Source of the DNA: a virus
Taxonomy: Duplodnaviria > Heunggongvirae > Uroviricota > Caudoviricetes
Direction: 5' to 3' (one strand)
IMG/VR virus record: IMGVR_UViG_2654587728_000014
Span: 1 to 64,000 of that record
DNA length: 64,000 nucleotides
In this document: in pieces, positions 15,865 to 20,968 of the stretch
Layout: each line of letters opens with the position of its first letter
Numbering within the stretch: position 1 is the first letter of the stretch
The notes under the pieces: model-generated
Databases searched by the model: none
What the model was told of the DNA's origin: nothing
The model's input: the letters and a program-made list of their open reading frames with translations, nothing else
Made by a program: the position numbers and the translations under genes

Positions 15865-17634
15865 TCAGTTGCCGTTAACAATGCTGATAACACTGCTGCG
15901 GGCCGGTGTGGTCAGCGTGGCCATGACTTCATCCAGTGCGGCTTCCGGTACGCCGTCCGGGTACTGTGCCGTTAACTGGCGGTAATGTTCCGGCGTCCAG
16001 GTAAGGCCGTCGGCGCTGAACTTATCGCGCAGGGCTTTCGCGGCCTCCACATGAGTCATGGGACGTTGTTCAGTGCGCGGCCCGCGTACGTCAGAGGCCT
16101 GACCACGCTTCGGCATATAGGCCGGAAGTGTGGTGTCGTCGATATGTTTATACGGGTCAAGCCGCCCGCCGAACGGCAGCGCCTTCGCCTTGCGTGCGGC
16201 GGCTGCATCTGCGGCGTTGTCTGTACCGGTAACCAGCGCTTCGGTTTCTTTTGCCGCCATCTGTGCCGGGGTTTCCGGCAGGGCTTTGTAACTTTCGCCA
16301 AATACCGCCGCGCCTTCAGCAAAGCCAAACTCGTTCTTTCTGACCTCTTCGACCAGGAAGAACGTCTCGTGGCCGTCCTCACCGGTCAGAACCACCTGTG
16401 CCACATCGCTGCGCCATGGGTTACGGGTAATCATCAGTTTTTCACCAACCAGTACGCCCGGTACCGTTGATACGTCAAATTCAGTGCCCCGGAACGAGAC
16501 ACGAAGTTTTGGCGTGACTTTGCGGAGTTCTGGTGCCGCCACAGCCAGTTCACGACATACCTCAACGGAAGGCGCTTTTTTCAGCTGCTCAGCAGTAATC
16601 TTCAGCCAGATATCCGTGCGGGTTTTACCGTGGCGGCTGTGAACAGCCGTGGCGTTAAAGTGGCTGCGCCATTTCGCGGCCAGCGCGTTGAGTTCTTCCA
16701 GACTGTGAACCGGCCGGAACTTCAGACCCGGCTCCAGCTTGCGTTCGATAATGTCACGCGCCTTTTCCACCTGTCCGGTGGCGCGGGCGTTATGCGGCTT
16801 GTGCGCTATCAGGTCGATGCCCAGTGAGCGGCACATGTTTTTCGTCATACCCGCGGTGTTTGCCGAGCCGGGGTCGAGATAGAGTATTTTCGGCACGCCG
16901 TGCAGCACGTCTGCGCCGCCACGCTCCTGCATGGCGTTGATAAGCACAGAACACAGGTTCTCACCTGATTCCGCGCCCGTCACATACTCAACGTAAATCC
17001 AGCCGCTGGCATGGTCGGTAATCTCGTAACTCCACACGCGGTCACTGGCGATACGGGCAAGGTTAGCGGGCTTGTTCTTGTAGAACTTCGCGCTGTCCAT
17101 CACCTGCAGCCCTTTATGTCCATTGCTCAGGTAGTAAAGCGTGCAGAGTGAGGCGTCAATCTGCCAGACATGATTGGGATGCAGACTGGCCACTTCGGTA
17201 TGTGGTGCAGGGGCATCCAGTTGTTCCGGGTGCAGGCCATAGTTACGCAGAGCACGGCTGATGGCATCTTCAGACAACGGGAAAAACTCACTGGTGGTTT
17301 CATCTGTTCTGCCTGCGGTGATAAAGCCGTTAGCCCGCAGGGTTTCCACTGCATCTGCGATGGAATAGAGACGCTTACCGTTCTTGCGGGTGGCCTCACG
17401 CAGTGTGGCAGATATCAGCGCGGCTTCGTCGCGGGTCAGGGCGCTGCGCCCGGCATCGGCGCGTTTTTTGCGTTTATCAGTCACAGATACCTCCTTCAGC
17501 CTGCGCAGCAGAGTGGCGCGGGACATGCCAAGTTCAGCACAGGCAGCGTCGTATATTGCACCGCGTTTACCATGCCCCGCGTCACGTGCCGCGCGGGCTG
17601 TTTCAACCAGTTTTTCAGTCAGTGCCGGGGTCAT
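15865..17634 (-). CDS. Mu-like DDE transposase (MuA family)
   Basis: 589 aa; large transposase immediately upstream of B-like ATPase; MuA-like N-terminal DNA-binding and core regions. Confidence 0.88.
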   Translation of the reverse strand: MTPALTEKLVETARAARDAGHGKRGAIYDAACAELGMSRATLLRRLKEVSVTDKRKKRADAGRSALTRDEAALISATLREATRKNGKRLYSIADAVETLRANGFITAGRTDETTSEFFPLSEDAISRALRNYGLHPEQLDAPAPHTEVASLHPNHVWQIDASLCTLYYLSNGHKGLQVMDSAKFYKNKPANLARIASDRVWSYEITDHASGWIYVEYVTGAESGENLCSVLINAMQERGGADVLHGVPKILYLDPGSANTAGMTKNMCRSLGIDLIAHKPHNARATGQVEKARDIIERKLEPGLKFRPVHSLEELNALAAKWRSHFNATAVHSRHGKTRTDIWLKITAEQLKKAPSVEVCRELAVAAPELRKVTPKLRVSFRGTEFDVSTVPGVLVGEKLMITRNPWRSDVAQVVLTGEDGHETFFLVEEVRKNEFGFAEGAAVFGESYKALPETPAQMAAKETEALVTGTDNAADAAAARKAKALPFGGRLDPYKHIDDTTLPAYMPKRGQASDVRGPRTEQRPMTHVEAAKALRDKFSADGLTWTPEHYRQLTAQYPDGVPEAALDEVMATLTTPARSSVISIVNGN

Positions 17635-17649
17635 AGCTTGTCTTCCCTG

Positions 17650-17967
17650 TTATCCGATTCTGGCGGCAATTTTTCTGGCGAGGTCGCACAGTGTTTCGCC
17701 ATCGCAGGTTTTCACCACGGTATTTACCGGTTGCGGTGCAACTACCGGGCGTAATGCTGACTGATTCTGCAGACGTCTTATCTGCTGCATCAGCATCACC
17801 TCCATCGTCAGTACAAACGGGTGCGTCTCCTGTGCGGGTACGCAGATTTCACCGGAAGGGGTCACCACGCGGAAACCCTGCACCATCTCCGGCAGCAGAT
17901 TACACAGTGCGTGCCCCAGTGCCTCCGGGCTGTCCATCAGGGTATTTTGTGTGTTATTCGTATTCAT
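17650..17967 (-). CDS. hypothetical protein
   Basis: 105 aa ORF in early operon. Confidence 0.45.
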   Translation of the reverse strand: MNTNNTQNTLMDSPEALGHALCNLLPEMVQGFRVVTPSGEICVPAQETHPFVLTMEVMLMQQIRRLQNQSALRPVVAPQPVNTVVKTCDGETLCDLARKIAARIG

Positions 17968-18887
17968 TACTGCATATCCTCCGGTCGGTTGATTTCAGGT
18001 TCCGGTTCGGTCAGCCAGGCGGGGGCATCGTTACCCGATGGAGCGGCCTCAAGGTCAAACGTCTCACGTAATGCATGAACACTGCGTTCAATCTGGCAGA
18101 CCAGACCGGCCATGAAATCTCTGGGGGTATCGATCATGTTTTTGGTGCAGTATTCACACAGGGTCTCAAAAACACTGGACAGCCGGACGGCGATAGCCGA
18201 TTCGGCCTCAACCGCTAATGCCGTCACTTCCGCCCGCAATTTTTTCAGTTCTTCGTCTGGCGGCGGAGGTTGCAGGCGCGATTTCTTCTCCAGTTTTGTG
18301 GCCAGTTCGTTGATTTTTTCGTCCTTTCCGGCAAGCACCTGTTGCTGAGCTGCGTTGGTTTCGCGCGCTTCACGCAGGGCGGCCTTCAGTTCGCGGCTGG
18401 TCATGCGATCAATATCATCAAGCGTTGCACCGGCGACGGTTCCACCATCAGCTAATGCGTCGAGTTCTTCGTCATCCAGAACCATCAGTTCATATAACTT
18501 GGTTTTTCCCAAAACGCTCAGCGCTGAGCGTTTTGGCTGTTCATCTCCATTGCCGAGAAATTTCACGCTGGCCTGCATCATGCGACGAGCTACCTGTGGT
18601 GCTAATCCGAGGTCGTTTTCCAGAATATTTGTGAAATCACCATGCGGTTCATTTTCTTTTAAGATGATCAGCCGCTTACCCGCTTCCAACATAGATTCAG
18701 CACTCTGCGCCATATAAAAACGTGCTTCGTGAACGATGCGTTCACGTTCATAAGGCAGTCCATCACCAAACTGCTGCATGATCTCCATGCGATGCTGTGT
18801 CATGGCATTCAGGCTGACGTTGAGATCATCCGACAGCGGTACATCGGCGTTCAGTTCAGTGTTAATCGGTGATTTGGTACGTCCCAT
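17967..18887 (-). CDS. hypothetical protein (DUF3102-like)
   Basis: 306 aa, acidic and coiled-coil rich; domain call from memory. Confidence 0.45.
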   Translation of the reverse strand: MGRTKSPINTELNADVPLSDDLNVSLNAMTQHRMEIMQQFGDGLPYERERIVHEARFYMAQSAESMLEAGKRLIILKENEPHGDFTNILENDLGLAPQVARRMMQASVKFLGNGDEQPKRSALSVLGKTKLYELMVLDDEELDALADGGTVAGATLDDIDRMTSRELKAALREARETNAAQQQVLAGKDEKINELATKLEKKSRLQPPPPDEELKKLRAEVTALAVEAESAIAVRLSSVFETLCEYCTKNMIDTPRDFMAGLVCQIERSVHALRETFDLEAAPSGNDAPAWLTEPEPEINRPEDMQ

Positions 18888-18897
18888 TGATTACTCC

Positions 18898-19212
18898 TTA
18901 CAAACGACTACCTGAAATGACACGTTGGTTAATTTCGTTAATACGATCCTGTGCACGTGCCATCTCGTTACTGTGGGCCATGGCGATCTGCAGTAACTGG
19001 ATGCCCGGTGCAAAACGTCCGTTCTCCAGTTTCAGAGCCAGCCCTTCTTCAATGAGGGTGTTGAGTGCCCGGTTGATGTTTGCCGGTGACTCGTGCAGTG
19101 CTGTCGCCAGTTCACCGTTAGAAATACCGTTCAGGGCATGACCGCGCAGCGCTTTGAGTACCCGGAGGATGCGACTGCCGGAGCTTGAAACATTCGTCTT
19201 ACTCATCTGCAT
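18898..19212 (-). CDS. HTH DNA-binding protein
   Basis: 104 aa with winged-helix-like segment ISNGELATALHESPANINRALNTLIEEGLA. Confidence 0.5.
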   Translation of the reverse strand: MQMSKTNVSSSGSRILRVLKALRGHALNGISNGELATALHESPANINRALNTLIEEGLALKLENGRFAPGIQLLQIAMAHSNEMARAQDRINEINQRVISGSRL

Positions 19213-19258
19213 ACCTCTTTTGCGATATGTGATAACCTTTTACAAAGACTCAAAATAT

Positions 19259-19447
19259 TTAGGCCGCCTGAGCTGTTGATTTCAGTCCCAACTTCACGGC
19301 GATTTCATGGGATTTACCGTAACGGGCTTTGGTCTGCCCGTTGAGAACGCGGTATACCTCATTGCGGTTGTAGCCGTTTTCTTCTGCCCAGCGGGTGAAA
19401 GTGATCCCGCGCTGGCGGAAGAGAGCTTTGACTTGTTCTGCAGTCAT
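19259..19447 (-). CDS. ner: Ner-like DNA-binding regulator
   Basis: 62 aa; pattern FRQRGITFTRWAEENGYN...GKSHEIAVKLGL parallels the Ner/Nlp family; divergent from repressor gene. Confidence 0.65.
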   Translation of the reverse strand: MTAEQVKALFRQRGITFTRWAEENGYNRNEVYRVLNGQTKARYGKSHEIAVKLGLKSTAQAA

Positions 19448-19499
19448 CGTTGTCTCCTTTGTTGATGCAATGATGTTTGCCTTATATGTGTTAGATTAT

Positions 19500-19547
19500 T
19501 GCTCATAATTATGAGCATATCAAGATAGAGATTCACTTTTATGAGCA
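19500..19547. promoter_or_regulatory. operator region: perfect palindrome TGCTCATAATTATGAGCA plus extra TTATGAGCA half-site over the repressor start codon
   Basis: seen directly in the ner/repressor divergent intergenic region. Confidence 0.5.
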
Positions 19548-19897
19548 AAGATATAGGAGAGCGCGTTATTTCTGTGAGGAAGAAAGCAGGGTTGAACCAG
19601 AGAGAATTTGCAGCTCGTTTAGGTATTTCTAATGGTGGTATCAGTCAGATTGAAAATGGAAAGGCGATGCCTGGAGGGGAGTTTCTGTTAAAGATGCATC
19701 AAGAGTTTAATGTTGATGTAAATTGGTTGCTCACTGGAATGAGCACAGATGGTATGACTAGAAACCAGAATCAAATTTCCCCAGAAAAACAAAAACTAAT
19801 AGATACTTTTGACGACATGACACCAGACCAACAACGCTCATTTCTTGAGATTGGGCGATTCTATACTCAGCCAAAACCAGGAAAAATCGCAGGCTGA
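19541..19897 (+). CDS. XRE-family HTH repressor (Mu c-like)
   Basis: 118 aa; HTH QREFAARLGISNGGISQIENGK; divergent from ner-transposase operon. Confidence 0.8.
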   Translation: MSKDIGERVISVRKKAGLNQREFAARLGISNGGISQIENGKAMPGGEFLLKMHQEFNVDVNWLLTGMSTDGMTRNQNQISPEKQKLIDTFDDMTPDQQRSFLEIGRFYTQPKPGKIAG

Positions 19898-19983
19898 TAC
19901 TGACCCGGACACAAAGGACAGGTGGTTGATCTGGATGCTTTCAGAAAACATCGCCAGTGACATAGTGGAAGTTGTTTGGTTTA

Positions 19984-20014
19984 CCGGAAAGCATTGTGCT
20001 TTCCGGTTTTGTTT
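19984..20014 (+). terminator. rho-independent terminator after repressor gene
   Basis: hairpin CCGGAAAGCA-TTGT-GCTTTCCGG followed by TTTTGTTT. Confidence 0.6.
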
Positions 20015-20778
20015 CAGAAGTTGCAGATTAGCAGTTCACGGCGCGGCGTGGGTTTACCCGCCAGACTGTAGTTGATATTCACTGTCTGTATGTTCAGTCC
20101 AGTGAACACCTCGCGCATCTGCGGGATGTCGTTCACCGAAATTATCATTTTTCCTCTGATGCACCGGGCCAGCTCTGCCAGCCGCGAGTAGTTCCCTTCA
20201 GGAAAATCCACACCATAGCCTTCCGTACCCAGGTACGGTGGGTCGCAGTAGAACAGCGTGTGCGGACGATCATAACGCTCAATGCACTGTTGCCAGTCCA
20301 TGTGTTCTATGACTGTTCTGGAAAGCCGCAGGTGTGCCGCTGACAGTTCTTCTTCAATACGTAGCAGGTTGAAGCGTGGCGGGGATGTGGTGGAGGTACC
20401 GAAGCTGTGCTCTGCCACCTTGCCGCCAAACGCCTGCTTCTGAAGGTAGTAGAACCGTGCCGCACGCTGGATATCCGTCAGTGTTTCTTCCGGGGTGATC
20501 TGCAGCCATTTGTAGATCTGACGGCTGACCAGCGCCCATTTGAACTGGCGGACAAATTCTTCCAGGTGATGCTTTACCACCCGGTACAGATTCACCAGTT
20601 CACCGTTGATATCATTGATGACTTCGATCTTGCCGGGTGTCTTAAGAAAATAGAGCGCTGCTGCCCCACAAAACGGCTCCACATAACATTCATGCGCCGG
20701 AAACAGCGGCAGAATGTGTTTTGCAAGGCGGCGTTTGCCACCAATCCACGGCACGATGGGTAATGTCTGCATTTTCAT
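20014..20778 (-). CDS. dam: DNA adenine methyltransferase (Dam-like, orphan)
   Basis: about 254 aa; IVPWIGGKRRLAKHILPLFP... and DPPY motif (FYCDPPYLGTEGYG). Confidence 0.85.
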   Translation of the reverse strand: MKMQTLPIVPWIGGKRRLAKHILPLFPAHECYVEPFCGAAALYFLKTPGKIEVINDINGELVNLYRVVKHHLEEFVRQFKWALVSRQIYKWLQITPEETLTDIQRAARFYYLQKQAFGGKVAEHSFGTSTTSPPRFNLLRIEEELSAAHLRLSRTVIEHMDWQQCIERYDRPHTLFYCDPPYLGTEGYGVDFPEGNYSRLAELARCIRGKMIISVNDIPQMREVFTGLNIQTVNINYSLAGKPTPRRELLICNF

Positions 20779-20968
20779 AATCTGCAAGCCTTTTACAATT
20801 ATTAAAAAATATGGCAGTCTGGTCAGGTCTCGCGAGACTGACTGAACCTTGGTCGGCTCACAGCGCATTCCTGTGGGGCGATGACCAGCCCGGCTTTCGG
20901 GTGCCGGGCTGGTCGTTCTTTCATGATGCGGCAGGGATGGCGGGATTTCTGTTAATGTGGTTTAGGGA

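Follow-up and report, generated by a model that had tools for sequence, protein, structure and literature searches.

A probable compact immunity switch in a BcepMu/B3-type prophage, with putative repressor operators in the early promoter and over the repressor start codon

The short divergent region between the ner-like gene and the repressor gene of a transposable prophage raises the question of which protein the repeats within it serve, and to what end. The region lies in a 64,000-nucleotide (nt) stretch of viral DNA (IMG/VR record IMGVR_UViG_2654587728_000014, positions 1 to 64,000; hereafter the window), in which 93 base pairs (bp; 19448-19540) separate two open reading frames (ORFs): on the minus strand the first gene of the early operon (19259-19447), encoding a helix-turn-helix (HTH) protein of 62 amino acids (aa), and on the plus strand the gene of a 118-aa repressor (19541-19897). 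Judged by its sequence, the element is a BcepMu/B3-type (Mu-like) transposable prophage, and Escherichia phage PhiKM, a Bcepmuvirus from uropathogenic E. coli, matches the region with 100% identity. The original prediction had noted a perfect 18-bp palindrome at 19500-19517 and a third copy of its half-site over the repressor ATG, and had proposed from these an autoregulated, compact bistable switch. It is most likely that the palindrome and the start-codon site are binding sites of the prophage repressor, and that the switch is an ordinary phage immunity switch, compactly built and laid out as in its relatives. The fuller proposal, an immunity switch in which repressor dimers would occupy three 18-bp dyad operators, here designated O1, O2 and O3, is given a probability of roughly 0.7.

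The palindrome TGCTCATAATTATGAGCA is present at 19500-19517, with nine bases on each arm, and is exactly 18 bp long (19499 and 19518 are unpaired). The repeat over the start codon reads TTATGAGCA at 19539-19547, with the ATG at 19541-19543, and the extent given for the divergent region was likewise correct. The description of this repeat as a third half-site stands in part: it is an exact copy of the half-site but is not isolated, being the right half of a full, asymmetric 18-bp site at 19530-19547. This second site, O2 (halves GATTCACTT/TTATGAGCA), has an exact right half and retains only TCA in its left half; it matches the proposed primary operator O1 (halves TGCTCATAA/TTATGAGCA) at 12 of 18 positions, and the centres of the two are exactly 30 bp apart. 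The full extent of O2 had been overlooked, as had the further site O3 within the repressor gene and the exact fit of O1 into the spacer of a promoter. A consensus scan of 17600-20050 found a single sigma-70-like promoter, the early promoter Pe, on the minus strand, with a -35 element TTGATA at 19518-19523 and a -10 element AATAAT at 19495-19500 (10 of 12 consensus positions, 17-bp spacer). The palindrome of O1 comprises the spacer together with the first base of the -10 element, which is its outermost base. Transcription from Pe is predicted to start leftward at about 19488, which places the centre of O1 at about -20.5 and O2 at about -50, and leaves about 40 nt of leader, including a good Shine-Dalgarno sequence, ahead of the ner-like ATG.

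A perfect 18-bp palindrome occurred somewhere in the 64 kb in 27% of dinucleotide shuffles, whereas it occurred within the 93-bp region in 0.025%. The O1 18-mer is matched nowhere else in the 64 kb at up to three mismatches (0.03 expected), and the exact 9-mer half-site occurs only three times in the window, each time in O1 or O2. No extra operator copies, for example at the prophage ends, were found in the 64 kb; at up to one mismatch the 9-mer has 15 matches, against 11.8 expected.

Comparison with relatives indicates that this arrangement is a property of the family. A set of 54 unique control regions, drawn from heteroimmune E. coli relatives and from 80 IMG/VR loci found with the ner-like protein, was anchored on a conserved motif in the leader of the ner-like gene. 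These fall into about 15 unrelated O1 sequence types (for example GGTGCAGATTACCTCACC, ATGAGAACcattGTTCTCAT, TGTCTAAaaaaTTAGACA, ATACACaaacGTGTAT and TATCCCATAAATGGGATA), each with its own palindrome or near-palindrome at the same place: in most unique relatives the centre of the best palindrome lies +45 to +46.5 bp from the leader box, and the reverse complement of a -35 hexamer follows each palindrome. The Pe hexamers keep fixed offsets, the -35 element as TTGnnn (39 of 53 unique relatives) and the -10 element as nATAAT (35 of 53). The best second match of the cognate O1 lies 29-33 bp downstream in 14 of 17 immunity types; with non-cognate O1 sequences, the cognate score was equalled or beaten in 24 of 272 trials and the best match fell at 29-34 bp in 70 of 272. 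Of 19 sequences with curated sites, 17 show an overlap between O2 and the likely start codon (ATG, GTG or TTG), the centre distance being 29-34 bp. In phage B3, an O1 of sequence GGTGCCAAATATTGCACC accompanies a -35 element TTGACA, and its O2 (GGTGACAGAAAAATCACT) contains the GTG of ORF18; in BcepMu, the O1 is GGTATGCGTTTGATTACC and the O2, GGTAATCGTATGGATTCA, has the ATG of gp17 at its centre; in Fc02, TGGGACatcaaaGTCCCA and AGGGACttttatGCCTCA are 24 bp apart. The type-A relatives L034, L043 and L080 retain T[TA]ATGAGC[AG] at the ATG. Both the position relative to the promoter and the comparison across relatives therefore favour genuine operators, and the placing of a start codon inside an operator site appears to be a conserved feature of the family rather than a coincidence.

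The exchange of sequence between relatives suggests to which protein the sites belong. Compared with the heteroimmune E. coli relative L002, the window is at least 93% identical up to 19499, falls to about 33-67% (30-nt windows) from 19500 to about 19865, and recovers to 80% for 19866-19895 and to at least 90% after 19896. The mosaic boundary thus falls exactly at the first base of O1, and the exchangeable immunity cassette so delimited (19500-19870) holds O1, O2, the -35 element of Pe and, with O3 in it, the greater part of the repressor gene. Outside it are the ner-like gene with its leader, both conserved across types. Given that the ner-like gene and leader stay constant while the cassette is swapped from O1 onward, the putative operators travel with the repressor HTH and not with the ner-like protein, and are assigned to the repressor. 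The same covariation of operator type with the repressor cassette supports the proposed sequence-specific binding of the repressor to O1-O3. Moreover, related HTH subfamilies go with related operators, as in the GGTnnn...nnnACC series.

The repressor itself is of a familiar kind. Its 118 residues comprise a five-helix HTH_3/XRE domain (residues 5-65), a linker and a two-helix C-terminal hook (81-108), the helices of which are predicted at 81-92 and 95-108. In Pfam it matches HTH_3 at 55.8 bits (cutoff 23) and Phage_CI_repr at 25.4 (cutoff 22), and its N-domain matches those of 434 cI (E=3.4e-8) and P22 C2 (E=1.3e-5) in sequence; the predicted fold of this domain superposes on the 434 and P22 C2 domains with a root-mean-square deviation of 1.2-1.8 A. 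No match to a peptidase S24 domain was found in the 118 residues, so the protein is not a self-cleaving repressor of the LexA/lambda CI type. The best match of the predicted full-length fold is SinR (1b0n_A; TM score 0.47-0.54), and a BLASTP alignment with SinR gave 31% identity over 108 aa with the hook region aligned; the SinR matches in the PDB sequence and fold searches are independent of this alignment. By its model the repressor is thus 434/P22 C2-like at its N-terminus and SinR-like overall. No SinI-like antirepressor paralogue of the hook was found in the window.

The repressors of this family are modular, with a mosaic joint inside the gene, given that the C-terminus (19757-19897, residues ~73-118; SPEKQKLIDTFDDMTPDQQRSFLEIGRFYTQPKPGKIAG) is common to at least six heteroimmune types (A, B, F, G, H and I) while further types have different short C-termini that agree in an LLxx[FY][RD]…[RK]xxxL motif. 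In the distant relatives L072 and L075, which have the same O1/O2 layout, the repressors are 270-300 aa long and end in LexA-like S24 domains (GDSMEP); the family therefore holds both SOS-cleavable and non-cleavable repressors on the same scaffold.

A further candidate operator lies within the repressor gene. A scan with the hexamer core found O3 (TGCTCActggaaTGAGCA; 19728-19745), TGCTCA-ctggaa-TGAGCA, in codons 63-69 (W-LLTGMS-T), with both hexamers intact and the same 6+N6+6 geometry as in O1; its centre is 228 bp from that of O1 and 198 bp from that of O2. In the 1.5 kb around the switch the TGCTCA/TGAGCA hexamers occur five times against 0.7 expected, and all five are within O1, O2 and O3. 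The TGCTCA-N6-TGAGCA pattern is present at the same codons in all three type-A repressor genes examined (window, L034 and L043), which are 68-75% identical in nucleotide sequence, whereas other types with the same WLLTG peptide use different codons. Intragenic sites cognate to their own O1 were also found in type B (AGTGCAGTTATCTGCACT, 175-176 bp from O1, in which the left half of O1 forms a perfect palindrome), in type I (16 of 18 matches, 259 bp) and in type H (13 of 18, 261 bp). Because such sites occur in some types and none was seen in about ten others, the putative O3 is regarded as real but optional. No consistent helical phasing of O3 to O1 and O2 was found, the distances being 228/198, 176/145 and 259/229 bp in three types.

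These elements suggest a mechanism. A repressor dimer would bind 18-bp dyad-symmetric operators with the half-site TGCTCA(T). At O1 it would exclude RNA polymerase from Pe and so silence the early genes (ner-like, winged-helix, DUF3102, transposase and onward), by which lysogeny would be kept and immunity given. O2, three helical turns (30 bp) away and weaker, would lie over the ribosome-binding region and ATG of the repressor; oligomers of the repressor would fill O1 and O2 cooperatively, perhaps with a loop to O3, for a sharper repression of Pe. Repressor transcription would cross O2 and O3, as well as O1 if started upstream, and would therefore be damped at high repressor concentration (negative autoregulation). 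The lytic-arm protein, of the gp16 family, would not use O1-O3 but would act on the leader box. That the repressor would shut off the lytic promoter is suggested by the position of O1 in the Pe spacer and by analogy to the relative Fc02, in which inactivation of the repressor switches on pE and the ner-like operon, as seen by RNA-seq (PMC9936078). Cooperativity between the operators is plausible, given the modelled two-helix hook and the best full-length match to SinR, which multimerises through such a hook. Autoregulation and bistability, as put forward in the original prediction, we infer from the layout.

Several observations weigh against this proposal. First, the second site is not uniform: the relative L050 has no detectable O2 (10 of 20 at a distance of 39), and in L067 and L072 the best second match is at 41 bp (11 of 20, weak, and 14 of 20, respectively). 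Some start codons of relatives were chosen by the authors, although those of B3, BcepMu, L002 and L004 are database annotations. Second, L080 (IMGVR_UViG_2576861014_000008) combines type-A-like operators with a different recognition helix. Third, O3 is found in only about 4-6 of 17 types, its pattern arises in 2.0% of synonymous recodings of the protein, and the O1-O3 and O2-O3 distances vary between types. Fourth, the AlphaFold2 (AF2) model of the repressor was made from a single sequence, with a mean confidence (pLDDT) of 73.7. Finally, a promoter for the repressor was not found, so that it is the geometry that argues for autoregulation. With regard to L080, its operators are TGCTCAATATTTTGAGCA and, over the ATG, TCATTTTTATGAGCG; its recognition helix, ARNTIYNWMAKGN, resembles that of the type with operator TGTCTAAAAAATTAGACA, and only the Met-Ser codons (ATGAGC) are common to it and the window repressor. 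It would represent either convergent specificity or a mismatched recombinant.

The search for a repressor promoter bears on the explanation that survives best beside the proposed switch, namely that O2 and O3 only strengthen the repression of Pe, through cooperativity or local concentration, that there is no meaningful autoregulation, and that the overlap with the ATG is forced by the shortness of the 93-bp region. The consensus scan of 17600-20050 gave no rightward sigma-70 promoter for the repressor, and a leaderless transcript from 19541 was rejected for want of a plausible -10 element. A weak candidate is an extended -10 element, TGtTAGATT, at 19489-19497 (plus strand), which overlaps the -10 element of Pe; the pattern TGnTAnnnT is present in 36 of 53 unique relatives, all of them close and with a variable base at 'n', and is not kept in distant relatives. 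In the B3-like phage Fc02 the lysogenic transcript of the repressor originates at a distal promoter and runs antisense through the ner-like gene (PMC9936078). Alongside this missing promoter, a role restricted to Pe would be in keeping with the position of O2, where an UP element or the alpha subunit of the polymerase would bind, and with the tight O1-O2 spacing (29-34 bp) at a time when the position of the start codon within O2 ranges from -2 to +17. However, this restricted role is unlikely for two reasons: first, any repressor transcript crosses O2 and O3, and bound repressor would be expected to impede it somewhat. Second, type-A relatives retain ATGAGC even where the rest of the protein differs, as in L080.

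The repeats could instead act in RNA, with the left half of O1 (UUGCUCAUAA) pairing with UUAUGAGCAA at the start codon in any messenger begun upstream of 19499 and so hiding the AUG. The minimum free energy (MFE) fold of 19498-19575 has exactly this 10-bp pairing, at -15.9 kcal/mol, and the Fc02 lysogenic transcript, from its distal promoter, would contain both sites (PMC9936078). This scenario is nevertheless very unlikely, given that the fold is no better than those of shuffled sequences (z = -1.05; 30 of 200 shuffles fold as well), that the pairing vanishes if the transcript starts at about 19505, and that no Rfam family matched 17500-20100 at E<=1. Where O1 departs from palindromy, comparison across types shows that O2 carries the same base as O1 in 56 of 105 cases and the pairing partner in 29 of 105, close to the chance level; O2 copies the bases of O1 rather than complementing them, which marks the repeats as copies of a protein site in direct orientation and not as partners in a helix. 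As a general rule for the family, RNA sequestration of the AUG is not supported, given the shuffle-level fold and this direct-repeat pattern.

It is less probable still that the 62-aa Ner-like protein is what binds the palindromes, whether in place of the repressor or in common with it in the manner of Cro and CI. The protein has an HTH, is divergent from the repressor and, like cro, comes first in the lytic operon; but it is 100% to about 85% conserved in relatives with unrelated palindromes, its gene lies outside the exchanged cassette, and the invariant leader box is a better candidate for its target. Given that the protein is near-invariant across relatives with unrelated operators, it cannot share the putative palindromic operators as Cro does those of CI. 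The name Ner-like is itself apt by position but not by family: the protein belongs to NCBIfam TIGR04111 (BcepMu gp16; 97.4 bits, cutoff 34) and PHROG 925 (E=4e-33), whereas against Pfam PF13693 HTH_35 (Mu Ner) it reached 17.9 bits (E=0.003), below the cutoff of 25. No PDB relative was found at E<=1, and some Pseudomonas phage records label the homologue 'Ner-like antirepressor'. The leader box (TGATGCAATGATGTTTG; 19463-19479) lies in the 5' untranslated region of the ner-like gene, at about +10 to +26 of Pe; by its information profile it is the most conserved non-coding stretch, it is unique in the window, and its B3 version is TAATGCAAAGATGTT. It is most likely the target of the gp16/Ner-like protein. 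In the gp16 leader of BcepMu (L089, AY539836.1) a perfect inverted repeat, GTCGGCACcgtggaaaGTGCCGAC, stands instead of the TGATGCAA box, which would fit a different target for the BcepMu gp16 (46% identical). No match to the integration host factor (IHF) site WATCAANNNNTTR was seen in the leader by eye.

That the third half-site is a functionless coincidence of an AT-rich region and a Met-Ser N-terminus is the least credible explanation: although ATGAGC encodes Met-Ser and part of the 9-mer is thereby fixed by the protein, a further exact half-site arose in the next 63 bp in 0.07% of shuffles, and an equivalent site, of differing sequence, is present in 14 of 17 types as well as in B3 and BcepMu.

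An extension of the proposed switch can be put forward only tentatively, and is itself unlikely: the cassette would be a self-contained module of three operators, with coding sequence doubling as operator DNA and a SinR-like oligomer looping about 200-230 bp of its own gene, and the arm formed by gp16 and the leader box would be common to all heteroimmune relatives, allowing cross-induction. If this were true, a superinfecting or co-resident heteroimmune phage could stop the synthesis of the resident repressor in trans, resulting in cross-induction between immunity types.

The window contains a second symmetrical element in a coding sequence. Within the DUF3102 gene (17967-18887, minus strand), a 28-bp perfect palindrome, CCAAAACGCTCAGC/GCTGAGCGTTTTGG, lies at 18511-18538 and encodes PKRSALSVLG. 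It recurs, near-perfect and correspondingly placed, in 18 distinct relatives (L007-L075; some 910 nt downstream from the ner-like ATG), with differing inner sequences; both arms have changed in 10 of 14 pairs, and the share of paired cells is 95.5%, falling to 30-47% with a slid partner. The pairs changed on both arms include the central ones, which could not form in a hairpin, and this argues for a dyad-symmetric site of a dimeric protein and against a hairpin in RNA or DNA. In at least six groups the type of palindrome covaries with residues 85-111 of the DUF3102 protein, a variable HTH-like segment encoded about 10 codons upstream, and no covariation was found with the adjacent 104-aa winged-helix protein. 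The palindrome probably serves, from within the gene, as a binding site for the gene's own product, and protein and site may together form a second specificity cassette. No PDB relative of DUF3102 and no literature on its function were found; a single-sequence AF2 model was left unused on account of its low confidence (pLDDT 47). A different palindrome, 22-24 bp long and perfect (AGAATGGCCGA[TA/CG]TCGGCCATTCT), lies beyond the repressor gene in L043, L044, L048, L050 and L059-L061, about 990 nt to the repressor side of the ner-like gene, and is not present in the window.

The early operon runs on the minus strand from 19447 and encodes, in order, the 62-aa HTH protein, a 104-aa winged-helix protein, a 306-aa DUF3102 protein, a 105-aa protein, a 589-aa DDE transposase, an ATPase-like protein, gam and further genes; its ner-like gene has 70-76% DNA identity to those of Pseudomonas B3-like phages. 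On the other side, a gene for a D12-class Dam-like adenine methylase (20014-20868, minus strand) converges on the repressor gene. Directly before it, 86 bp past the repressor stop codon, lies a hairpin resembling an intrinsic terminator (19983-20007, plus strand; an 11-bp stem followed by a T run), which is a probable two-way terminator common to the two genes.

The prophage region was found in 592 of 5,426 complete E. coli genomes, in 390 of them at 99% identity or above, many being of sequence type 131 (ST131); the prophage is carried by a large share of pandemic ST131 E. coli and has been recovered as the live phage PhiKM. Knowledge of its operators, early promoter and immunity cassette would serve induction studies, the typing of immunity from sequence and the construction of clear or virulent mutants, and would also allow missing or mis-started repressor genes in database records to be corrected. 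In the PhiKM record (L001, PQ738613.1, 6342-6698) the repressor gene has no annotated coding sequence, and only a 41-aa minus-strand ORF is annotated there. In type-D E. coli prophages (L005/L006, 1779-2240) the annotated repressor start, the ATG at 1779, falls within O1 and the Pe promoter; the likely start is a GTG 36 nt downstream, within O2. In addition, about 15 repressor/operator pairs on one fixed scaffold would provide a series for studies of HTH specificity or for orthogonal switches.

Among known systems, the direct relatives are B3 and Fc02 (Beetrevirus) and BcepMu (Bcepmuvirus), in which a gp16/Ner-like homologue comes first, the gene of a small HTH repressor diverges from it and the divergent region measures about 85-130 bp. 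They appear to resemble the window in having a palindrome in the early-promoter spacer and, over the start codon of the repressor, a second site cognate to it, and differ in operator sequence and repressor HTH (they are heteroimmune), in the spacing of Fc02 (24 bp as against 30 here) and in the leader element of BcepMu. Overlapping promoters pC2/pE have been predicted for this phage group, according to a citation in PMC9936078. In the literature on BcepMu/B3-type phages, the B3 genome paper aside, no operator mapping was found. What is new is therefore a matter of detail within a known kind of system, namely the individual sites, the constant O1-O2 geometry and the place of the cassette boundary.

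That kind of system includes Mu, in which transcription of the repressor and of the early genes (ner, then transposase) is divergent, operators overlap Pe, another operator serves negative autoregulation, and a small regulator of the lytic arm acts between the promoters. The repressor of Mu carries a MuA-like winged-helix domain and binds many non-palindromic repeats over about 200 bp with the use of IHF. The layout here is alike, but the repressor has an HTH of the XRE/434 type, the putative operators are 18-bp palindromes within 93 bp, and the lytic-arm protein falls outside the Mu Ner family. In its DNA-binding fold, in putative dyad operators of 14-18 bp that overlap the lytic promoter and in the exchange of cassettes among relatives, the switch resembles those of 434 cI and P22 C2 (OR1-OR3), in which several operators are filled cooperatively and overlap divergent promoters. 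Unlike in these, there is no S24 domain, one operator lies in the promoter spacer rather than over the -10 and -35 elements, the Cro analogue is outside the cassette, and the second putative operator is on the repressor start codon and the third inside the gene. SinR of Bacillus subtilis combines an HTH with a hook, as modelled here, and its tetramers on paired sites provide a precedent for cooperativity between O1 and O2, although SinR is a cellular biofilm regulator antagonised by SinI. Finally, auxiliary intragenic operators 100-400 bp from the main one are known from lac (O2 in lacZ), gal (OI in galE) and the third operator of the lactococcal phage TP901-1 CI, in which they serve looping and tighter repression; by analogy O3 may allow a loop here, with the difference that it lies in the gene of the repressor itself and is found only in some immunity types.

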